Assembly (NCBI GenBank): GCA_039196715.1
Contig: JBCCUP010000008.1
Location: forward strand, 5,488-69,487
Length of the DNA: 64,000 bases
Source of the DNA: Pseudomonadota bacterium
Lineage (GTDB): Bacteria; Pseudomonadota; Gammaproteobacteria; CALCKW01
Reading direction: 5' to 3'
Shown here in pieces: positions 4,145-30,184 of the stretch. Both the position numbers and the translations under genes were made by a program. The notes beneath the pieces were generated by a model. It had not been told where the DNA came from. It did not search any database and saw only the letters and a list, made by a program, of their open reading frames with translations. Position 1 is the stretch's first letter, and each line of letters begins with the position of its first letter.

Positions 4145-5141
4145 AGTCAATTTACAAGGCGTGACCAAACGCTTCGGTGCCCAGCGCGGGGTCGAGGATG
4201 TCGACTTGCTTGTCGAGGACGGGTCCTTTGTCGTGTTGCTCGGCCCAACCGGCGCGGGCAAGACCACCACGCTGCGGTTGGTCGCGGGCCTCGAGAAGGC
4301 CGACGCGGGCACCGTCTCGATTGGCGGGCGAGAGGTCAACAGCGAGACGCCGGCCCAGCGCGACGTGGCCATGGTGTTTCAGCAGTACTCCCTCTACCCG
4401 CACATGTCGGTGCGCGACAACCTCGCCTTTCCGCTGCGCTCGCCGATCATGAACCTCGCTGAGGACGCGATCGCGCGCAAGGTGCAGGACATCGCCGAGG
4501 TGCTGCACATCTCGCACAAGCTCGACAACCGCGCCACCGCGCTTTCGGGCGGTGAGATGCAGCGCGTCTCGATCGGGCGCGCGCTGGTGCGCGACCCGTC
4601 GATCTACCTCATGGACGAACCGCTCAGCTCACTCGACGCCAAGTTGCGCGCCGAGTTGCGGGTCGAGCTCAAGCGCATCCACGCCGAGATGGCCGCGACA
4701 CTGCTCTATGTCACCCACGATCAGATCGAGGCGATGACCATGGCGAGCCAGATCGGCGTGCTCGATGAAGGTCGGCTCGTGCAGTTTGGCACGCCGCGAG
4801 ACATCTACGAAAACCCGCACACCGCGTACGTGGCGGCGCGGCTCGGTCAGCCGCGCATCAACCTGCTGCCGGCGGACCTGTTTGGTGCTGGCGCACCGGC
4901 GACAGCCTCGCAGATCGGGCTGCGCCCGGAGCATATCGTGCTGGGCAGCGGGCAGGCTGCGACGGTCGTCCGGGTCGAACACCTGGGTGACCAGACCCGC
5001 CTGCACCTGAAACTGGCCGAGCACGACATCGTGACGCTGGTCGACGCCGGCACCGCAGCCTCACCCGGCGACACCCTGCAGGTGTCCGCGTCCAACCCCC
5101 TGTACTTTGACGCGCACGGCGCGCGCGTCGCGACAGCATAG
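4137..5141 (+). CDS. ABC transporter ATP-binding protein (MalK/UgpC family) 2
   Basis: The GTG start overlaps the upstream stop. Walker A GPTGAGKTT and signature LSGGEMQRVSIGRA. Two ATPase genes per transporter is characteristic of glycerol-type importers. Confidence 0.9.
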   Translation: MAEVNLQGVTKRFGAQRGVEDVDLLVEDGSFVVLLGPTGAGKTTTLRLVAGLEKADAGTVSIGGREVNSETPAQRDVAMVFQQYSLYPHMSVRDNLAFPLRSPIMNLAEDAIARKVQDIAEVLHISHKLDNRATALSGGEMQRVSIGRALVRDPSIYLMDEPLSSLDAKLRAELRVELKRIHAEMAATLLYVTHDQIEAMTMASQIGVLDEGRLVQFGTPRDIYENPHTAYVAARLGQPRINLLPADLFGAGAPATASQIGLRPEHIVLGSGQAATVVRVEHLGDQTRLHLKLAEHDIVTLVDAGTAASPGDTLQVSASNPLYFDAHGARVATA

Positions 5142-12751: not shown

Positions 12752-13470
12752 TGAAGAACAGACTCGTGATGGTTCGCCACCACCACAACGCGTTGGAGCT
12801 CGACGACGTCGCGTGCCGCGTGCTGCGGGCCCGCGGATTCGAGCTCGAGCACGTCCACCCGCATGCCGGCGATCCGCTGGGTGTGCCTGCGGACGACGTT
12901 GCCGGCACCATTGTCTACGGCGGCGGCCAGAATGTCACGGAGTTGGAGCGCTTCCCCTACCTGCGCGACGAGATGCAGTGGATGCTCGATTGCCAGTCGT
13001 CCGGCATCCCGGTGCTGGGGATCTGCCTCGGCGCGCAACTGCTCGCGGCGGCGCACGGGGCCGATGTCATGCGGCCCGCAGACGGTCTCTGCGAGTTCGG
13101 CTATTACCCGGTCTTCCCCGTGGACGACAGCGGATTCGTGCCGGCGGAGGGCCTGCACGTGACCGAGGCGCATTTCGAGGCCTTCGAACTGCCGGCGGGC
13201 GCGGTGCACCTGGCGCGCAGCGAGGCCTTCCCGAATCAGGCGTTTCGGGTCGGCGACAATGTCTACGGCTTGCAATTTCACCCGGAAGTGAACACCGAAG
13301 TGTTCCGCGATTGGCAGGCGGACTATTGGACGCCGCATTTCTACGCGTCGCCCGGCAGCCAGAGCGAAACCGAATCACTCGACTTGCACTACCGCCACAC
13401 CGAGGCCCAGGGCGCCTGGTTCGAGGCGCTGTTGCTCAACCTGTTCGGCACGGCGCCGGCCGCCGCCTGA
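12752..13470 (+). CDS. class I glutamine amidotransferase-like protein (GMP-synthase-type GATase domain)
   Basis: The catalytic Cys region reads GIPVLGICLGAQLL. I used the internal ATG at 12752; the ORF-track start at 12556 overlaps the divergent MFS gene. Confidence 0.7.
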
Positions 13471-13508
13471 CTTCAAGGACGCAACACGCACAGCACGCCA
13501 CAGCTCAT

Positions 13509-13863
13509 GTGGGAGCCCGGTCGTCGCGCAGTGACACCGGGGGCCCGCCTAGGGCAAAACGCTGGCTTTAATGTCTTTCGTCGCGTCTCCCCGCGCCTGA
13601 CGGCCCAGGAAGGACGCAACTCCCACGGCTTGCCACAGGCTTCGTGGGAGCCCGGTCGTCGCGAAGCGACACCGGGCGAAGGGGTTAGGCAGCACGCTAA
13701 AGCACTTAGCAGTCAGCGTTTCGTCGCGTCTCGCACAGCGAGGACGCAACTCCCACAGAGGGCTCTGTGTCTTGCTCGCGCCTGATGGCACAGCGCGGAC
13801 ACGGCTCTCACAGGTTGCTACTGAATCTGTGGGAGCGCGGTCGTCGCGCAGGGACACCGGGCG
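13509..13863. repeat. cluster of REP-like palindromic repeats (GTGGGAGCSCGGTCGTCGCGMAGNGACACCGGGSG units at 13509, 13644 and 13829, interleaved with TTCGTCGCGTCTC...GAGGACGCAACTCCCAC modules)
   Basis: Three near-identical ~37-bp units plus inverted CTCCCAC/GTGGGAG arms, read directly from the sequence. They fill the 475-bp intergenic gap between the amidotransferase and the DUF423 gene. Confidence 0.8.
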
Positions 13864-23505: not shown

Positions 23506-24873
23506 TCAGCGCGGCCAGTGCCGATGGTGCTCGTCGATGACAAAGGGGTGTGCGTGCCTGGTCGCGGCGTGGTGGTGCGGGTGCCGGTGCGGCTCCGGGC
23601 CCTCCCACCCCTCGTGCACATGCTGGTGGTGATCGTCATGGGTGTGCAGGTGATCGTGGTCCAGTGCGTCGTGACGGTGCAGCAGCGCGTCCGGGTCATC
23701 GCGCGGCCAAAGCCGCACAGCGAGCAACAAGGCCAGGCCCGAAATGGCCGCATGGAGCCAAAACCAGACATCGACGGGCAACACCGCGCCGAGAAATCCG
23801 GCACTGGCGTACGCCAGCAACCAGATGCCGTGAGAGAGTGAAAAATTGGTGGCAAACAGGGCGCTGCGGTCGCTGTCGTGACACGACGCAATGATGATTC
23901 GACCCGAGGGTGTCAGGATCAGAGAGCCACCGACACCCACGAGAAACCAGACGAACAGCACAGCGGTGTGGGAACGCGTTGCAACCCCGAGGCCCAGACC
24001 GAGCAGTGCGACCAGCGCGCCGGACAACATCACGGTGCGTGTGTCGGTGCGCCGCAACAGGCCCGGCACACTCCAGGCCGCCAGAACCGCACCAACGCCC
24101 GCAGCACCGGCCGTCAAGGGCACCCAGTGCTCGGGCAGTTCAAAGTACTCCCGCACCAACACGACCGTGTTGACAATGACCAGGGCGCCGCTGAAGGAGA
24201 CGACTGCGTGCAGCGCCAGCAAACCGCGCAACCGCGGCGTCCGGGTGTAGGCGCTGATGCCGAACAGCAGATTGTGCAGCACGCCGCCGGCACGCTCGCT
24301 GGCCGCTGCCGACGGTACCCGACTCCACCAGACGAGCGCGGCAGAGCCGATCAGCAACACCGCCGAGAGGGCATAGAGTCGCGTGTGGTCGGCGACAAAG
24401 AGCAGCCCCGCGGCGAGCAGCGGACCCGCCATGCCCTCCAACTCCTGAGCAAGCCGAGACCAGCTCAGCGCCTTCACGTACTGCTCGTCGTCGAGGAGAT
24501 CGGGAATCGCAGCCTGGTATACCGGCGTGAACGCAGCCGAAAACATGTAGAACACCGCAACCAGCAGCACAAACGCAACACTGGAACCGACCACAGCCAA
24601 CCACAGCAACAGGCCCGCGCGGGCCAGATCGAGGGTGACAAGCCAATTGCGCCGCGGCAGGCGGTCGATGTACGCACCGACCACCGGCGCAACCGTGACG
24701 TAGACGAGCATCTTGCCGATCAGCGCGGTCGCGAGTAACGCGCCCGCTGCGTCAGGTCGAAAGGCGTGCGCGCTCAGGGCGAGCGCGACAACAACAAGGC
24801 CGTTGGCCACGAGTGAGAGCAACTGCGCAGCAAAGAGTCGCGCGAAGGCCCGGTTTTCGAGTGGTGAGGTCAT
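23506..24873 (-). CDS. MFS transporter with a histidine-rich C-terminal cytoplasmic tail
   Basis: 12-TM MFS core with start MTSPLENRAFARLF. The C-terminus reads HDALDHDHLHTHDDHHQHVHEGWEGPEPHRHPHHHAATRHAHPFVIDEHHRHW. It lies downstream of the riboswitch-cobW unit. The ORF-track extension to 25239 was rejected. Confidence 0.75.
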   Translation of the reverse strand: MTSPLENRAFARLFAAQLLSLVANGLVVVALALSAHAFRPDAAGALLATALIGKMLVYVTVAPVVGAYIDRLPRRNWLVTLDLARAGLLLWLAVVGSSVAFVLLVAVFYMFSAAFTPVYQAAIPDLLDDEQYVKALSWSRLAQELEGMAGPLLAAGLLFVADHTRLYALSAVLLIGSAALVWWSRVPSAAASERAGGVLHNLLFGISAYTRTPRLRGLLALHAVVSFSGALVIVNTVVLVREYFELPEHWVPLTAGAAGVGAVLAAWSVPGLLRRTDTRTVMLSGALVALLGLGLGVATRSHTAVLFVWFLVGVGGSLILTPSGRIIIASCHDSDRSALFATNFSLSHGIWLLAYASAGFLGAVLPVDVWFWLHAAISGLALLLAVRLWPRDDPDALLHRHDALDHDHLHTHDDHHQHVHEGWEGPEPHRHPHHHAATRHAHPFVIDEHHRHWPR

Positions 24874-25024
24874 CGCTTGGCACGCCCACTGGCGATCTGG
24901 ACTACCGGCATTCTGCGGCCACCGGCTGTGCCGCAGCAAGCACACGTGGCATGACCGCCTGAACGCTGTTGCCACCGGAGCGCGCGGCCCGGATTCAGCA
25001 GCGCGCGCCGACCCGCGAACGGGG

Positions 25025-26085
25025 TCAGGCCACCGGCCGAGTCTCGAAGTGGGTCTCCAGGCGCGTCTGGTCAAGATGAAAGCCGATACACACCAGGCGC
25101 GTGCGACGCGCCTCATCATCGCGCCAACGCCGATCGAAATGGGTGTCGAAGCGCGCACCGACCCCCTGCACCAGCAAGCGCATCGGCTTGTCAGGTACGG
25201 CGGCGTGGCCCTTGATCCGGAAGACCGTCTCCGCCCCAACGAGAGCGTCCAGGCCGGCCTGCAGCGCCTCGGGTGTCATCGGCGGCAGGTCGAGTACCAC
25301 GTGGCTGAACACGTCGTGCGCGTGGTGGTGGTCTTCGTCGTGGTCGTGGTGGTGGTCGTGGTGGGTGTGGATGTGGTCGATCGCGTCCTCGGCCGCCGCG
25401 CCCACACCGAGCAGCACACTCGGCGAAACAGCGCATTGCGCAGTCGGCAACAGCTTGACCTCGCGCGGCAGACGCGCGGTGATTGCCTCCGAGACGCTCG
25501 CCAGGGTGTCGTCCGACATCAGGTCGGTCTTGTTGACCAGCACGAGATCGGCCGCGCTGAGCTGGTCGTCGAACAACTCGACCAGCTCCGGTGTGTGGTC
25601 GAGGCTGTCGTCGGCGAGCCGCTGCGCCTGCACCGCGTCCGGGTCGTCGGCAAACCGACCGGCGGCCACCGCCGGCCCATCGACCACCGTGATCACCGCA
25701 TCGACCGTGCAGGCTGTGCGGATTTCCGGCCAGGCGAAGGCCTGCACCAGCGGCTTTGGCAGGGCGAGCCCCGAGGTTTCGATCAGGATGTGGTCGATCT
25801 GGTCACGGCGTTCGATCAACTGCTCGAGCACCGGATGGAACTCCTCCTGTACGGTGCAGCAGATGCAGCCGTTGGCGAGTTCGTAGATGCCGGGGCCGGA
25901 CTCGGTTTCGTCCTCGCACCCGATCGAACACTGGCGGACCAACTCGGTGTCGACGTCCATCGCGCCGAATTCGTTGACGATCACAGCGACCCGCAACCCT
26001 TCGGTGTTTTTCAACACGTTCTGGACCAGGGTGGTCTTGCCGCTGCCGAGAAAGCCGGTGACAACGGTGGCGGGCAACTTTTTCA
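25025..26085 (-). CDS. cobW: COG0523 GTPase metallochaperone, CobW-like (cobalamin biosynthesis cobalt chaperone)
   Basis: P-loop GFLGSGKTTL, metal-binding GCICCT, His-rich stretch HIHTHHDHHHDHDEDHHHAHD and a C-terminal CobW_C domain. The start ATG is at 26083-26085. Confidence 0.85.
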
Positions 26086-26508
26086 TGCGGGTGACTCGTC
26101 GAAGGGGGGCATTCGGGCGATGAAGTGGCCCTTGATGGCGGCAGGCCACTGTTTGTACGGTACGCGCCCGCTTTCGGACTGCGTGTAGAGCGCAGCGTAC
26201 GCAGCGAGCGCATCGGCCGACTCGGCCGACGGCTCAAAGCGTCCAATGACATAGCTGTATTTTGAGGGATCACACAAGTGCACATTGCAGGCGTGATCGC
26301 AGGCCATCAGGCACTGGACCGGACGTAACGACACATCGGAGTCGGCGAAGGCCGCCTGAAGCCGTTGCAGAAAGTGCTCGCCGCCACTCAGCCCGTCGGG
26401 CGCATTGGCCGCGCGATCCCGGTTGCAGGTGGTGCAGACGTGGAGCACGGCGGCGGAGGTGGATGACGCGGTCTCGTCCGCGCGTGCGGCAGTCGGTGTT
26501 CGGTCCAA
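26083..26508 (-). CDS. DUF1636 metal-binding protein (thioredoxin-like [2Fe-2S]-ferredoxin fold), commonly linked to cobW
   Basis: Cys/His motifs HVCTTCNRD and CLMACDHACNVHLC. The TTG start at 26506-26508 is preceded by GGGGAG. Its stop overlaps the cobW start (ATGA). The ORF-track N-terminal extension overlaps the riboswitch and was rejected. Confidence 0.65.
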   Translation of the reverse strand: MDRTPTAARADETASSTSAAVLHVCTTCNRDRAANAPDGLSGGEHFLQRLQAAFADSDVSLRPVQCLMACDHACNVHLCDPSKYSYVIGRFEPSAESADALAAYAALYTQSESGRVPYKQWPAAIKGHFIARMPPFDESPA

Positions 26509-26534
26509 AGTGAGCTCCCCGCTCGTCGGAACGT

Positions 26535-26725
26535 CATGCGACGGCAGGTCTCCTGGCTCCGGGTCACCGTGTGACGCGCCTTCCCGGTCCGGCGGGGTGC
26601 CGAGACCAGTGGCGTGTGCGGCACACTCCACCGTTACAGTTGCGGGGGCAGCTCGGGCATGTCACCCGATTCCCTTTTTTACACCTGCGACCCAGGTGGG
26701 TGGCAGGTGACCGATCGCTGGCGCC
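26535..26725 (-). promoter_or_regulatory. cobalamin (AdoCbl) riboswitch, RF00174-like
   Basis: The minus-strand sequence contains the canonical blocks in order: GGTCGCAGGTGTAAAAAAGGGAATCGGGTGA ... CCCCGCAACTGTAACGG ... GCCACTGG ... CGGGAAGGC ... GAGCCAGGAGACCTGCC (the B12 box). It sits directly upstream of DUF1636-cobW. Confidence 0.85.
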
Positions 26726-26811
26726 GAGTGTACCAGCAATCCCCGCCACACTCGCGTCGATTGCGACACCGGCCGCGCCGCGCACGACCCTCGAAGGACC
26801 CGCAAACGCGC

Positions 26812-28035
26812 CTAGGGTAACTCGCGCGCGAGCCGCACCAGGTGGCTCATGAGCCGCAGGAACGGCAAAGTCACCATGCCGGCCTCGTTGTTCCAGGTGC
26901 CGACCACGCAGGCCGTGCGCCCCGCGGTGTCCTCGAGCAGGAAGCTCTGGTTGATCACACCGGGCTCGGACCCACCCTTGTAGGCCACGCGGGCCCAGCG
27001 CGACGGGTCGAGGTGTCCGGGGTTCTGCACCACGGCGGGCGCGAACCCGACGGCACGCAGCGCAGCGCAGAGCTCACGCGCGCTCAAGAACCATTCGACG
27101 TCGAGCGCGACCGGGCCGGCATCGAACACCGAGAGCGGTGGCAACGGTCTCGACGCGAGTGCGTCGAGCACGCCCCGACGGGCAGCCGTGTCACCCACCC
27201 GCCACTGGGCCAACAGGTCGGCGTTGCGCGGGTCCTTGAGCCGGAAGACCGCGCCGGTGTCGAGAAACGGCGTGTTCCTTGGTGAGAGCGCTTCGAGCGC
27301 GTCGCGTCCCAGCGCGTCGATCAGCACATCGGTCGCGGTGTTGTCGCTCAATCGGATCATGTCTTCTGCCAGTGTGGCGATGCGGTGCGCCGAGCCGACC
27401 GGCGCGTCCTGCAAGCGGCCGCTCGGCAACGAGACGTGTTGCTGCGCAAGCGAGAGGCTCGCGTCGGCGGGGAGCCGGCCCGTGGCCTGCTGTTGCTGCA
27501 AGGCGCGCAGCACCAGCAGTTTGAACGCCGAGCCGACCGCAAGCGGCGTGTCGGCGTCGCGGGCAAACAGCAGCTCGCCATCGCGCTCGACGAGCAGGCT
27601 CACGGTGCCGCCAAACTCGGGCAGGACCTGTTCGATGTCCGCACGCGTTGGCGGGGTGCGCGGCTCGGTCAGGTTGAACCAGAGCGTGGTGAAGCCGCCC
27701 TCGGCGTCGAGCCGCGCAAACACCGGCACGACCGCCTCGTCGAAGTCGAGCAACCAGAAGGCCTCGTCCTCGCGCACGCCGCGTAACGCGCCGTGCGCCT
27801 CGAGGGTGTCGTCGCGGATGCCGGCCACACTGTCGGCAAACCCGGTGCCGCGGATCGCCGGTGTGAAGAACCCCTCGCGCACCTCGGCCGCGTTGAACAA
27901 CCGGGTCAACGCGGCGGGCACCGCGTCCGGTGCGGACGCCGGCGGCGATGGCGGTGCCGCACAGACTGCGAGTGCCGTGGCCAGCGCCAGCAGCCACGTG
28001 AGCCAGGCACCTCGAGCGAACCCGGTCCGCGTCAA
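26812..28035 (-). CDS. beta-lactamase-fold serine hydrolase (class A-like motifs), predicted lipoprotein or secreted
   Basis: Signal/lipobox-like N-terminus LLALATALAVCAAP. Motifs SAFK (SxxK), SDN and KGG (KTG-like). About 190 extra N-terminal residues precede the hydrolase domain. Its TTG start overlaps the cobO stop (TTGA). Confidence 0.65.
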   Translation of the reverse strand: MTRTGFARGAWLTWLLALATALAVCAAPPSPPASAPDAVPAALTRLFNAAEVREGFFTPAIRGTGFADSVAGIRDDTLEAHGALRGVREDEAFWLLDFDEAVVPVFARLDAEGGFTTLWFNLTEPRTPPTRADIEQVLPEFGGTVSLLVERDGELLFARDADTPLAVGSAFKLLVLRALQQQQATGRLPADASLSLAQQHVSLPSGRLQDAPVGSAHRIATLAEDMIRLSDNTATDVLIDALGRDALEALSPRNTPFLDTGAVFRLKDPRNADLLAQWRVGDTAARRGVLDALASRPLPPLSVFDAGPVALDVEWFLSARELCAALRAVGFAPAVVQNPGHLDPSRWARVAYKGGSEPGVINQSFLLEDTAGRTACVVGTWNNEAGMVTLPFLRLMSHLVRLARELP

Positions 28036-28634
28036 AATTCAACCCCGGCCTGCGCCTTGACCCCTTGTTCCTTGTAAGGGTGCTTGACCGCCCGGATTTC
28101 GTTGACCATGTCGGCGGCCTCGACCAGCCGGTCGGGCGCGTTGCGTCCGGTGATGACCACGTGCTGCATGGCCGGGCGGGCGGCGAGCGCCGCGAGCACA
28201 GCGTCGAGGTCAACGTACTCGTACTTCAGCGCCCAGTTCAGTTCGTCGAGCACCACGAGGCCGATCGCGTCATCGCCGAGCAGGCGCTCGGCCACCGACC
28301 AGGCGTGGGCTGCCGACGCCATGTCCTTGTCGCGGTCCTGGGTCTTCCAGGTAAACCCGTCGCCGAGGGTGTGGAACTCGACCTGCTCGTAGGCGTCGAG
28401 CAGGTCGCGTTCGGCTGTCGCCATGGCGCCCTTGATGAACTGCACCACGCCCACACCCATGCCGTGGCCGATGGCACGCAGCGCCATACCGAAGGCCGCG
28501 GTCGACTTGCCCTTGCCCGTGCCGGTGTTGACTATCACCAGGCCCTTCTCGGTGGTGGCCTTGGCCTGCTTCTTTTCGTACCCCGCGTTGCGTTTCTCTG
28601 CAAAGCGCTGGTGTTTTGCCTGGTCGTCGTCCAC
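28035..28634 (-). CDS. cobO: cob(I)yrinic acid a,c-diamide adenosyltransferase (corrinoid adenosyltransferase, CobO/BtuR type)
   Basis: Collinear with Pseudomonas CobO: GLVIVNTGTGKGKSTAAFGMALRAIGHGMGVGVVQFIKG...VVLDELNWALKYEY...VVITGRNA...IRAVKHPYKEQGVKAQAGVEF. A GTG start follows a GAGGGGG RBS. Confidence 0.9.
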
Positions 28635-28740: not shown

Positions 28741-30184
28741 AATGCCCTACCTGCCCCTCTTCCTCGACAGCACCGACCGCAACGCCCTGCTGGTGGGCGG
28801 TGGTGTGGTCGCAACCCGCAAGGCCGAGCTGCTGCTGCGCGCGGGCATGCGGCTGTCCGTGATCGCGCCAACCATCCAGGCGGCGCTGGAAGCGAATCCG
28901 AACGTCTGCTGCCAGCACCGCCGCTTCGCACCGGATGACCTCGACGGTGCCGACCTCGTGTTCGCCGCGACCGACGACCCGGCGCTCAACCGCGAGATCG
29001 TCGCGCTGTGCCAGGTGCGCGGCGTGTTGTGCAACGCCGCGACCGACAGCCAGGGCGGCGATTTCATCCTGCCCTCGGTCATCGACCGCGACCCGATCCA
29101 GGTCGCCATCTCCACGAGCGGGGCCTCGCCGCTGCTCGCCCGGCTGATCCGCAGCCGCCTCGAGACCCTGTTGCCGATGAGCTACGCGCGCCTCGCGGCG
29201 CTGCTCGAACGGTTCCGCGGCCAGGTCAAGCGGCGTGTGCCGGCGAAGCAACGCCGCCGCTTCTGGCAGGAGATCCTCGAGGGACCGGTCGCCGATCTGG
29301 TGCACAGCGGCCACGACGACGAAGCCGAGACCGTGTTGGGTCGACTGCTCGACAACCCCGAGGAGGTCGACTCCGACGGTGAGGTGTACATCGTCGGCGC
29401 CGGCCCGGGCGACCCCGACCTCCTGACTGTGCGCGCGCTGCGCCTGTTGCAGCAGGCGGATGTTGTCGTCTGGGACCGTCTGGTCTCGCCGCCGATTCGC
29501 GCGCTCATTCCGACCTCCGCTGAGGCCATCTACGCCGGCAAACGCCGCAGCGAGCACCAGATCCCGCAGGACGACCTCAACCTGCTGCTGGTCGAACTCG
29601 CACGCTCAGGCAAGCGGGTGTGCCGACTGAAGGGCGGCGACCCCTTCGTGTTCGGCCGCGGCGGCGAAGAAATCGAGACCCTGGTGGCGCACGGGGTGCG
29701 CTTTCAGGTGGTGCCCGGCATCACCGCCGCCAACGGCTGCGCCGCCTACGCCGGCATCCCGCTGACCCACCGCGACCATGCGCAGAGCGTGAGCTTTCAC
29801 ACCGGCAACCTGAAGGCCGGTGAACTCGTGCTCGACTGGTCACGCATGAGCGACCCGCAACAGACCCTGGTGTTCTACATGGGCACCGCGAGTCTGCCGA
29901 TCATCCAGCGCGAACTCGTGGCCCACGGCCGGTCGGCAGACACCCCCGCCGCGCTGATACAGCAGGGCACCACACCCCACCAGCGGGTCGCGGTCGGCAC
30001 GCTCGACAGCCTCCACCAGGTCGCAACCGACGCAGGCTTCGAACCGCCGTGTCTGATCGTGGTTGGCGACGTGGTCAAGCTCTACGCCACGCTGCGCTGG
30101 TACCGCACCGGCGCCGACGCCGTGGACGCGAGCACCGGTTGGTTCGACACCGCGGCAACCTCGGCGGCACGGCACGCCGACTAG
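28741..30184 (+). CDS. cysG: siroheme synthase (CysG): uroporphyrinogen-III C-methyltransferase / precorrin-2 dehydrogenase / sirohydrochlorin ferrochelatase
   Basis: N-terminus YLPLFLDSTDRNALLVGGGVVATRKAELL (NAD-binding dehydrogenase/chelatase domain). The C-terminal SUMT domain reads VGAGPGDPDLLTVRALRLLQQADVVVWDRLVS and GGDPFVFGRGGEE. The start is taken as ATG 28741; the ORF-track start at 28706 is an alternative. Confidence 0.88.

Follow-up and report, generated by a model that had tools for sequence, protein, structure and literature searches.

The gene that overlaps the 3′-end of cobO in the stretch of DNA analysed here (64,000 nucleotides, hereafter the window) encodes what we take, with a probability of about three in four, to be an exported acyl-serine hydrolase of the Cpe/LpqF type, probably lipid-anchored, which was inserted after cobO by history and not by pathway logic. 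On this reading, the striking operon formed by a cytoplasmic B12 enzyme and an exported protein with a beta-lactamase fold would go back to an insertion specific to one lineage rather than point to a missing pathway step, and the hydrolase should be annotated neither as a cob gene nor as a resistance gene. The features on which the analysis draws are collected in Table 1.

Table 1. Features of the cobO-hydrolase locus and of the adjoining riboswitch unit, in window coordinates
Feature	Coordinates	Strand	Basis or remark
MFS transporter, His-rich C-terminal tail	23506..24870	minus	Pfam MFS_1, 4.3e-22; last gene of the riboswitch unit
cobW	25025..26086	minus	ATGA overlap with DUF1636 stop; Pfam cobW and CobW_C
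DUF1636 gene	26083..26508	minus	Pfam PF07845, 3.5e-32; start inferred at TTG 26508, GGGGAG just 5′
Cobalamin riboswitch aptamer	26731..26526	minus	Rfam RF00174, 113.8 bits
Two-domain serine hydrolase, predicted exported, 407 aa	28035..26812	minus	Pfam Beta-lactamase2, 3.9e-15
Class-A-beta-lactamase-like catalytic domain, residues ~130-405	26821..27648	minus	
K353-G-G355	26979..26971	minus	read in sequence
S230-D-N232	27348..27340	minus	read in sequence
S169-A-F-K172	27531..27520	minus	read in sequence
NTF2-like (SnoaL/ketosteroid-isomerase-like) N-terminal domain, residues ~38-127	27655..27924	minus	
Signal peptide, residues 1-24, and Cys25 of lipobox-like L-A-V-C	27961..28035	minus	R3, R8, then hydrophobic WLTWLLALATALAV
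TTGA overlap	28032..28035	minus	hydrolase TTG 28035..28033 and cobO TGA 28034..28032
cobO (ATP:corrinoid adenosyltransferase, 200 aa)	28634..28032	minus	GTG start, GAGGGGG just 5′
cysG (siroheme synthase)	28743..30184	plus	divergent from cobO; Pfam families of orthologues

The hydrolase ORF is a real gene, because its product matches a Pfam family and has more than 800 homologues, its GC3 (0.88) is like that of the neighbouring genes and its dN/dS is below 1. The product of the preceding gene is reliably identified as CobO, with matches to Pfam CobA_CobO_BtuR (PF02572; 2.3e-63) and to the NCBIfam models PRK05986 (266 bits, with a cut-off of 185) and TIGR00708 (218 bits, also above cut-off). 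The positions of the cobO TGA and of the hydrolase TTG place both codons within a single TTGA, as had been claimed and as is read directly in the sequence; TTG 28035 is the sole in-frame start candidate of the hydrolase ORF after the upstream stop. A stop/start overlap with cobO is found in all four genomes of the clade, as TTGA in the window, L084 and L083 and as TGATG in L001, and suggests that cobO and the hydrolase gene are translationally coupled. Upstream of cobO, Rfam models detected no riboswitch in the 108-nt spacer that separates it from cysG.

The assertion that the hydrolase gene adjoins a B12-riboswitch unit was likewise borne out: the aptamer, the only cobalamin riboswitch that Rfam finds in the 64-kb window, begins 80 nt past the hydrolase stop, and this position is kept in L001 and L083. 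The riboswitch controls the DUF1636-cobW-MFS unit, not the hydrolase. As listed, from 26631, the DUF1636 ORF extends into the riboswitch; the start given in Table 1 was deduced from the riboswitch coordinates together with orthologue lengths of 123-143 aa. The cobW product scores 465 bits against NCBIfam TIGR02475 (cut-off 332), and the MFS gene occupies the same position in L083 and in L091, the nearest outgroup (see below).

The N-terminus of the hydrolase reads MTRTGFARGAWLTWLLALATALAVC25AAP, and an N-terminal hydrophobic segment is present in 99 of 120 family members; export is well supported by these sequence features. The original prediction spoke of a lipoprotein-type signal, a description that holds for the signal peptide but less well for the lipobox: in L-A-V-C25 of the window protein the residue at -1 is a Val, which lies outside the consensus [LVI][ASTVI][GAS]C, whereas canonical boxes are found in the three closest relatives, as LVGC (L084), LGGC (L001) and LLGC (L083), and a further one in P0004 (LTAC). 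Lipidation of the window protein is, therefore, only probable. What had been described as an N-terminal domain of about 190 residues turned out to be a composite of the signal peptide (residues 1-24/25), a Pro-rich linker and a domain of about 90 residues that fold comparison identifies as NTF2-like; the class-A-like domain begins near residue 130. The predicted SAFK, SDN and KGG motifs were all located in this second domain, and in an alignment of 28 family sequences (A1) S169xxK172, S230DN, E314-W315 and K353GG are all invariant. The AF2 model of the hydrolase has a pLDDT of 91.3.

By sequence and predicted structure, the hydrolase belongs to a Cpe/LpqF-like superfamily in the broad sense and is homologous to its members over the full length. 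Its best match in the PDB is ORF12, or Cpe, of the Streptomyces clavuligerus clavulanic-acid cluster (entries 2XEP, 2XF3, 2XFS, 2XGN and 2XH9), both with the single sequence (2e-23) and with a profile (1e-46). A BLASTP comparison with ORF12 gives 32% identity over 274 aa (E 2e-28), and hhalign against a Cpe/LpqF alignment gives a probability of 100% (E 1e-52) across window residues 51-402. In Foldseek, the AF2 model aligns with ORF12 over about 435 columns that include both domains (E ~1e-24, TM 0.62). At the level of the N-domain, an NTF2/steroid-isomerase-like fold in both proteins, sequence says much less: the profile-versus-profile comparison yields a probability of 16% (E 0.0016), so that homology of the N-domains is not demonstrable by sequence alone; the N-domain profile matches nothing below E 0.1 among PDB sequences; and Pfam ORF_12_N (PF18042) has no match in the window protein, with one match (E 0.009) among 28 subfamily members, four of which match DUF3887 instead. 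The NCBIfam release searched holds no Cpe/LpqF model, and ORF12 itself matches only bla models there.

The catalytic tetrad of Cpe (Ser173, Lys176, Ser234 and Lys375) corresponds to S169, K172, S230 and K353 in the window protein. The two proteins also share the SLP(S/T)G loop and a K-x-G motif devoid of a Thr or Ser hydroxyl (KGG in the window protein, KAG in Cpe). They differ, however, at the positions that bind clavulanate in Cpe and are essential in vivo (PMC6478378), as Lys89, Tyr359 and Arg418 are replaced by Phe93, Asn338 and Leu393, with Asn338 invariant in the window family. Moreover, Cpe is cytoplasmic and essential for clavulanic-acid synthesis (PMC6478378), whereas the window protein carries a signal peptide and is encoded outside any biosynthetic cluster, in the company of cobO, cysG, DUF1636 and cobW.

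An exported lipoprotein form of this architecture is represented by the LpqF-type proteins of the Mycobacteriales, which are linked to Cpe through the name given to them by NCBI ('Cpe/LpqF family protein') and through a statement in PMC6478378. The Rhodococcus lipoprotein P0320 (lipobox LSAC) is 34% identical to the window protein over 296 aa (BLASTP, E 6e-37) and has in common with the window family the motifs V-E-W-F and F-K-G-G-(S/N)-x-P-G. The LpqF-type proteins form, nevertheless, a separate subfamily, which is actinobacterial, about 450 aa in length and matched by Pfam ORF_12_N. The only activity reported for LpqF is the binding of a carbapenem probe (bioRxiv 10.64898/2025.12.15.694292). 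A literature search on serine hydrolases that combine an NTF2-like with a class-A-like domain returned nothing relevant. The window subfamily itself is widespread, with members in cyanobacteria, Deinococcota, Pseudomonadota (including Acinetobacter baumannii) and Bacillota, most of them predicted to be exported; as a large subfamily with the full Cpe/ORF12 architecture, it may aid comparative work on Cpe and on mycobacterial LpqF.

The hydrolase shares the fold of the C-domain and export with class A enzymes (TEM, SHV, CTX-M). The gene could in principle be a true beta-lactamase or a resistance gene placed after cobO by chance. The SxxK, SDN and K-x-G motifs, the spacing of 61 residues between SxxK and SDN, which is canonical for class A, the Pfam Beta-lactamase2 match, a Foldseek match to class A enzymes (E ~1e-9 to 1e-11) and the electronically inferred RefSeq tag 'beta-lactam antibiotic catabolic process' on homologues are all in line with such an assignment. 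However, the protein scores only 30.2 bits against NCBIfam bla_class_A (NF033103), with a cut-off of 200, and the HMM alignments end near residue 249, ahead of the omega-loop region, where the window protein diverges from class A and carries some 20 additional residues. The invariant K353GG stands in place of KTG or KSG, without a hydroxyl at the second position, and resistance enzymes lack the additional NTF2-like domain. Cpe, the closest relative with a solved structure, is described in PMC6478378 as having neither an omega loop nor beta-lactamase activity, and LpqF of M. abscessus binds meropenem-biotin, with only low nitrocefin hydrolysis for the purified targets tested (bioRxiv 10.64898/2025.12.15.694292). 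We therefore regard a genuine class A beta-lactamase as most improbable. Of the suggestion that this is a hitch-hiking, resistance-like gene, the first half is supported by an adjacency restricted to four close relatives and by an L091 locus free of the hydrolase; the second half is not supported, given the bit score and the absent to negligible beta-lactamase activity of Cpe and LpqF (PMC6478378; bioRxiv 10.64898/2025.12.15.694292).

A cell-wall enzyme is a better candidate, if still an unlikely one. In this case, the protein would be a low-molecular-weight penicillin-binding DD-peptidase or carboxypeptidase that acts on periplasmic peptidoglycan stem peptides, like cyanobacterial PBP-A (Tll2115; 2J7V and related entries), with which it shares the C-domain fold and export. 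PBP-A comes next best after Cpe in the searches (E ~1e-11 by structure, 1.9e-11 by profile), the exported family is frequent among cyanobacteria, and the carbapenem probe labels LpqF alongside known PBPs (bioRxiv 10.64898/2025.12.15.694292). But PBP-A is a far more distant match than Cpe, the similarity found in sequence searches extends over no more than the first half of the domain, and peptidoglycan genes do not recur beside family members. A cell-wall enzyme would be one specific version of a hitch-hiker.

The history of the locus was reconstructed from four genomes that belong to the lineage and from a single outgroup that is informative. The hydrolase is adjacent to cobO in the window, L084, L001 and L083, whose cobO genes are 87-95% identical. 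The refuting condition named in the original prediction, absence from the cobO neighbourhoods of relatives, has a mixed outcome: the four closest genomes have the gene there, more distant ones do not. In L091, the nearest outgroup (cobO 71% identical), cobO is followed by a 118-nt spacer, the riboswitch and DUF1636-cobW, with no hydrolase; the order of the riboswitch unit, DUF1636-cobW-DUF4198-CbiM-HI_1622_C-CbiQ-ABC-MFS, is that of L083 minus the hydrolase. An adjacency found in four close relatives, together with a hydrolase-free spacer in L091, thus indicates that the gene was inserted into the spacer between cobO and the riboswitch. The closest hydrolase outside the clade, from Granulosicoccaceae, is 49% identical and unlinked to cobO. 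On the outgroup contigs P0128 and P0126, cobO lies after a chelatase ATPase, in a different cob context, and these contigs do not, therefore, inform the junction; a scan of metagenomes with cobO retrieved five loci only, which at 41-53% identity are too distant for a test of insertion. Only short chance matches were found in a search for flanking repeats and IS remnants around the inserted gene.

Since the insertion is confined to one narrow lineage, the hydrolase is unlikely to serve B12 metabolism, and the wider family points the same way. Within 10 kb, cobO, DUF1636 and cysG are all absent from each of 80 family genome loci, a riboswitch is present at one of 79, and the family as a whole shows no conserved cluster of neighbours. 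A screen with the whole cob cluster placed B12 genes near the homologue only in the window clade, in the group formed by Deinococcus radiodurans, D. wulumuqiensis and VB343, and in a Tissierellales MAG (L069). In the Deinococcus group, and independently of the window clade, the homologue lies 31-36 nt upstream of cobT-cobS, an adjacency absent from other Deinococcus species; in L069 it lies 2.2 kb from a riboswitch-cbiK-btuF unit. B12 genes lie close by in about 2 of 77 lineages, which is near chance level, itself a rough estimate of about 3% of loci that is not calibrated on control genes. The family relocates often: its copies occur in varied contexts, among them a Thermus plasmid of 14 kb and secondary replicons of Deinococcus. 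The sole CobW-family match within 10 kb of any of the 80 loci, in L043, is 29-34% identical and was rejected as a B12 link, since it is in all likelihood a COG0523 GTPase of the generic kind.

The corrinoid hydrolases and salvage enzymes known so far are cytoplasmic. Had the hydrolase been recruited to cobalamin metabolism, it would act at the outer membrane or in the periplasm, as an enzyme or a binder, on exogenous corrinoids before their uptake, which would account for its co-expression with cobO and would extend corrinoid salvage by a periplasmic step. We consider such a recruitment quite improbable. It draws on the location of the gene between cobO and a B12 riboswitch, with an overlap in four of four genomes, on the independent juxtapositions to cobT-cobS and, in L069, to the riboswitch-cbiK-btuF unit, on intact catalytic residues and a dN/dS below 1, and on the ligand pocket at the interface of the NTF2-like and beta-lactamase-like domains of Cpe (PMC6478378). 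Against it, the adjacency is confined to close relatives in both lineages and is missing from L091 and from other Deinococcus species; B12 genes are not enriched at family loci, with some 2 of about 77 independent cases, near the rough chance estimate; the partners vary from case to case (cobO; cobT/cobS; cbiK/btuF); and the A. baumannii homologue lies beside VgrG and a GNAT gene. In addition, the hydrolase is upstream of the riboswitch and escapes its control, and cobO itself has no riboswitch. With the amidohydrolase CbiZ and other corrinoid salvage enzymes, the window protein has in common only its genomic address beside B12 genes; no similarity in sequence or fold was detected. A search of one literature library that combined corrinoids, beta-lactamase-like proteins and the periplasm yielded no paper that links them. 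The chemistry envisaged under recruitment would be the hydrolysis, remodelling or capture of corrinoid amide or ester side chains, or of analogues that bear a lower ligand.

A broader form of the same idea, in which a Cpe/LpqF-like hydrolase was co-opted both here and, independently, in the D. radiodurans group for the acquisition of corrinoids outside the cytoplasm, appears decidedly improbable. If true, B12 salvage would gain its first periplasmic enzyme and the family its first physiological substrate; in the periplasm, or at the outer membrane, the protein would bind corrinoid precursors or analogues, or remodel them by hydrolysis, ahead of the late cytoplasmic steps of CobO, CobT and CobS. 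The original prediction had offered, as one of two readings, an extracytoplasmic hydrolase that processes corrinoids or amides; this reading gains no positive support, with no conserved B12 neighbours (cobO at 0 of 80 loci), B12 genes near the homologue in only two further independent lineages, no riboswitch control and no similarity to corrinoid enzymes.

For the preferred reading, an inserted Cpe/LpqF-like hydrolase, the following course of events can be proposed. The gene would have landed in the short spacer that, in the ancestor, separated cobO from the riboswitch-controlled DUF1636-cobW, and would be expressed from the cobO transcript, through the stop/start overlap, as no promoter of its own is visible. 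A promoter scan returned no sites, as expected for a genome of 67% GC, and a terminator scan of the coding strand between the genes, the hydrolase-riboswitch gap included, found none; the fold of the spacer between the hydrolase and the riboswitch has no advantage over that of shuffled sequence (z -0.25). By homology with Cpe and LpqF, the substrate that acylates Ser169 would be an ester or an amide, which may resemble a beta-lactam or come from the cell envelope, and its turnover would be slow or specialised rather than an efficient hydrolysis of beta-lactams. Since the insertion, the gene would have passed down vertically, with weak purifying selection acting on it. The hydrolase is under purifying selection much weaker than that on its neighbours, with a dN/dS of 0.25-0.42 against 0.04-0.08 for cobO and cobW and a dS similar to that of the flanking genes. 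As a counterpoint, each of the lineage's four genomes has kept the gene intact and in overlap with cobO, which a B12-related role would predict as well.

A base-by-base reading of the sequence bore out the overlap of the cobO stop codon with the TTG start of the hydrolase gene, the signal sequence and the SAFK, SDN and KGG motifs of the original prediction (see the table below). The cobO product matched Pfam CobA_CobO_BtuR (2.3e-63) and NCBIfam PRK05986 (266 bits; cut-off, 185). After the upstream stop codon, the TTG at 28035 is the sole in-frame ATG, GTG or TTG of the hydrolase ORF, so that the overlap does not depend on the choice of start. It is kept in all four genomes with this arrangement, as TTGA in the window and in the related loci L084 and L083, and as TGATG in the third relative, L001. 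Public gene calls place the start too late in two of them: the L083 protein (P0005) is called from 6302, leaving out the signal peptide and lipobox (L083 6170-6302), and the L084 protein (P0003) is called from a GTG at 4659 rather than from the TTG at 4647, where the overlap with the cobO stop lies; the signal peptide is thus lost because later starts were picked. Of the lipoprotein-type signal, the signal peptide stands, and the lipobox reads L-A-V-C, its Val at -1 departing from the consensus. The N-terminal domain, first put at about 190 aa, is instead made up of the signal peptide, a linker and a domain of about 90 aa.

Coordinates of features at the cobO-hydrolase-riboswitch locus (window positions)
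Feature	Position	Strand	Remarks
cobO	28634..28032	-	GTG start after Shine-Dalgarno-like GAGGGGG; ATP:corrinoid adenosyltransferase
TTGA overlap	cobO TGA stop 28034..28032; hydrolase TTG start 28035..28033	-	read from sequence
Hydrolase ORF	28035..26812	-	407 aa; starts MTRTGFARGAWLTWLLALATALAVC25AAPPSPP
S169-A-F-K172	27531..27520	-	checked base by base
S230-D-N	27348..27340	-	checked base by base
K353-G-G	26979..26971	-	checked base by base
Cobalamin riboswitch	26731..26526	-	Rfam 113.8 bits; 80 nt past hydrolase stop
cobW	25025-26086	-	TIGR02475, 465 bits; downstream of riboswitch and DUF1636
MFS transporter	23506-24870	-	His-rich; last of the DUF1636-cobW-MFS order after the riboswitch

The protein is not a standard class A beta-lactamase: it scores 30 bits with the NCBIfam class A model, for which the cut-off is 200, its Pfam Beta-lactamase2 match is confined to residues 152-249, and it has KGG rather than KTG or KSG. 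By far the best solved relative is ORF12 (Cpe), a protein of the clavulanic acid cluster of Streptomyces clavuligerus (phmmer, 2e-23; family profile, 1e-46). A profile-profile comparison with the Cpe/LpqF-family alignment gave a probability of 100% (E 1e-52; window residues 51-402 against ORF12 49-429), and BLASTP gave 32% identity to ORF12 over 274 aa; a Rhodococcus member with the canonical lipoprotein signal LSAC reached 34% across 296 aa (E 6e-37). A confident AlphaFold model (pLDDT 91.3, pTM 0.85), based on a 28-sequence family alignment, points the same way: Foldseek matched the predicted structure best to the ten chains of ORF12 (both domains, about 435 columns, E about 1e-24, TM 0.62/0.60, 27-28% identity) and next to PBP-A (Tll2115) and to ordinary class A enzymes, for which the match covered the C-domain only (E 1e-11 or weaker). 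The window protein is another Cpe/LpqF-like, class-A-related serine hydrolase, of a group already known and poorly understood; it deserves correct annotation and should not be named as a cob gene or as a beta-lactamase.

Cpe is cytoplasmic, lacks an omega loop, and shows no detectable beta-lactamase activity and weak cephalosporin esterase activity; Ser173, Lys176, Ser234 and Lys375, together with Lys89, Tyr359 and Arg418, are required in vivo (PMC6478378). The window protein keeps the catalytic tetrad (S169, K172, S230 and K353), whereas the Cpe ligand residues Lys89, Tyr359 and Arg418 align with F93, N338 (invariant in its own family) and L393. The mycobacterial lipoprotein LpqF resembles Cpe (PMC6478378), a tie to the window protein that comes through the literature and not from the LpqF sequence itself. 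In Mycobacterium abscessus, LpqF was labelled by meropenem-biotin, and low nitrocefin hydrolysis was reported for nine purified targets including LpqF (2025 preprint, 10.64898/2025.12.15.694292). We infer that the hydrolase is exported and probably lipidated, and that it would form an acyl-enzyme at Ser169 with an ester or amide substrate, beneath an NTF2-like cap; classical beta-lactams would be turned over poorly.

The order cysG (divergent), cobO, hydrolase, riboswitch, DUF1636, cobW is found in the window and in L084, L001 and L083, which from their sequences are close relatives (cobO 87-95% and cobW 84-88% identical to those of the window). L091 (cobO 71% identical), the closest outgroup whose locus can be compared, has cobO, 118 nt, the riboswitch and then DUF1636-cobW-DUF4198-CbiM-HI_1622_C-CbiQ-ABC-MFS, which is the order of L083 without the hydrolase; no cobO of 71-87% identity to that of the window was found in a collection of 5.8 billion proteins. 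The synteny of cobO and hydrolase holds in four close genomes and fails in L091 and at the 80 family loci sampled elsewhere. A riboswitch directly behind cobO also occurs at a distant cobO locus, L086 (L086 1816-2645; L091 7001-7943). Since distant genomes share this layout, cobO already adjoined a cobW or cobalt unit under riboswitch control before the insertion took place. The simplest history is that the hydrolase gene entered the cobO-riboswitch spacer once; its position is unusual and lineage-specific. No repeats or IS remnants were found flanking the gene, and its GC3 of 0.88 is host-like, arguing that the insertion is not recent. Within the block, the hydrolase gene has evolved fastest (52-79% amino-acid identity to the window; dN/dS 0.25-0.42), as compared with cobO (87-95%; 0.04-0.08) and cobW (84-91%; 0.06-0.08). 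Since dS is alike in all three and dN/dS higher in the hydrolase, the data fit a functional gene, vertically co-inherited under weak constraint.

A scan found neither a promoter-like site for the hydrolase nor an intervening terminator. The cobO promoter would drive transcription of the gene, its translation would depend on coupling, and read-through into the riboswitch unit may occur. The original prediction had offered a corrinoid hydrolase or a hitch-hiking resistance-like gene; we favor an exported acyl-serine hydrolase, inserted in one lineage, co-expressed with cobO and with no role in B12 metabolism, a reading to which, as a whole, we give odds of about three in four, its architecture and insertion parts being much firmer than its chemistry.

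The surroundings of family members elsewhere bear on a B12 role. The closest hydrolase outside the clade (49% identical; Granulosicoccaceae) is flanked by hrpA and by a small hypothetical gene, and none of 80 genome loci with family members had cobO, DUF1636 or cysG within 10 kb. A CobW-family GTPase at L043 was considered as a link and set aside as distant (29-34% identical) and most likely a generic COG0523 protein. When all neighbouring ORFs were clustered, no partner proved conserved; generic ABC ATPases formed the largest real cluster (13 loci). A covariance model built from four riboswitches, which also detected divergent ones (with about 60 bits each at a distant cobO locus and in a Bacillota MAG of 39% GC), placed a riboswitch near a single family locus, L069. 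In this Tissierellales MAG (L069 9983-17087) a cobalamin riboswitch (13389-13579), followed by CbiK-like, BtuF-like and BtuC-like genes, lies 2.2 kb downstream of the family member, with an opposite-strand flippase-like gene between the two.

A plasmid search revealed a Deinococcus radiodurans homologue 36 nt upstream of cobT-cobS. In the D. radiodurans, D. wulumuqiensis and VB343 group, the gene for this 499-aa protein shares the strand of cobT and cobS and precedes them by 31-36 nt (L095 4542-8065, D. radiodurans NZ_OV024759.1; L098, D. wulumuqiensis; L046 10001-13322). This is an independent second instance of a homologue beside late B12 genes; the adjacency is absent in D. ficus, D. radiophilus, D. 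arenicola and D. aquatilis, and neighbours are unrelated in other Deinococcus species and in Thermus. Because of this finding the screen was widened to a tblastn search of 85 family loci with all ORFs of a complete cob cluster (Methylibium pT29B) and cobT, cobS, cbiK, btuF/C and cbiM/Q; B12 genes were found only in the window clade, the D. radiodurans group and L069, different ones in each case. Proximity in 2 independent lineages of about 77 is close to the expectation for a random gene, about 3% within 10 kb of a B12 cluster, a rough estimate made without control genes; a single operon-like adjacency, where about 0.2 were expected, does not reach significance either. That family members recur near late B12 genes, so far without statistical significance, merits a footnote.

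The family has more than 800 homologues of about 400 aa, alignable over their full length, from cyanobacteria, Deinococcota, Alpha-, Beta- and Gammaproteobacteria, Bacillota, Spirochaetota and others. G-S169-x-x-K, S202-L-P-x-G, S230-D-N-T-A, E314-W, N338, K353-G-G-S-E-x-G-V, C376 and W381 are invariant in the 28-sequence alignment, four members of which match Pfam DUF3887. An N-terminal hydrophobic segment in 99 of the 120 best matches suggests a mainly exported subfamily. Some members (489-499 aa; P0007 and P0052 in the alignment; L095 4542-6041) carry the NTF2-like N-domain in two tandem copies. Family copies occur on Deinococcus secondary replicons, and one on Thermus aquaticus pTA14 (14.4 kb; L101 4067-5089), beside radical SAM and methyltransferase genes, indicates that mobile replicons carry the family about. 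Acinetobacter baumannii (NZ_CP104448.1; L094 4821-6095) has a homologue of 424 aa (35% identity), encoded between VgrG and GNAT acetyltransferase genes; the 3.6-4.1-Mb A. baumannii records with the homologue, plasmids according to PLSDB, are clearly chromosomes.

The cobalamin riboswitch is the single Rfam match in the whole 64-kb window; none lies in the 108-nt spacer between cysG and cobO. The mechanically called DUF1636 start, 26631, extends into the aptamer (26508-26631); the true start is probably the TTG at 26508, after GGGGAG and 18 nt beyond the aptamer end, a spacing that would be compatible with translational control. The DUF1636 and cobW genes share an ATGA overlap. CobW carries a long His-rich stretch, HTHHDHHHDHDEDHHHAH, and the MFS protein a His/Asp-rich C-terminal tail of about 55 aa; these His-rich stretches suggest metal (cobalt) handling. 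The window unit (23506-26508) consists of DUF1636-cobW-MFS alone. In L083 (7666-13938) and L091 (8035-14271) a DUF4198-CbiM-HI_1622_C-CbiQ-ABC cobalt-uptake block stands between cobW and MFS, and it seems to have been lost in the window lineage.
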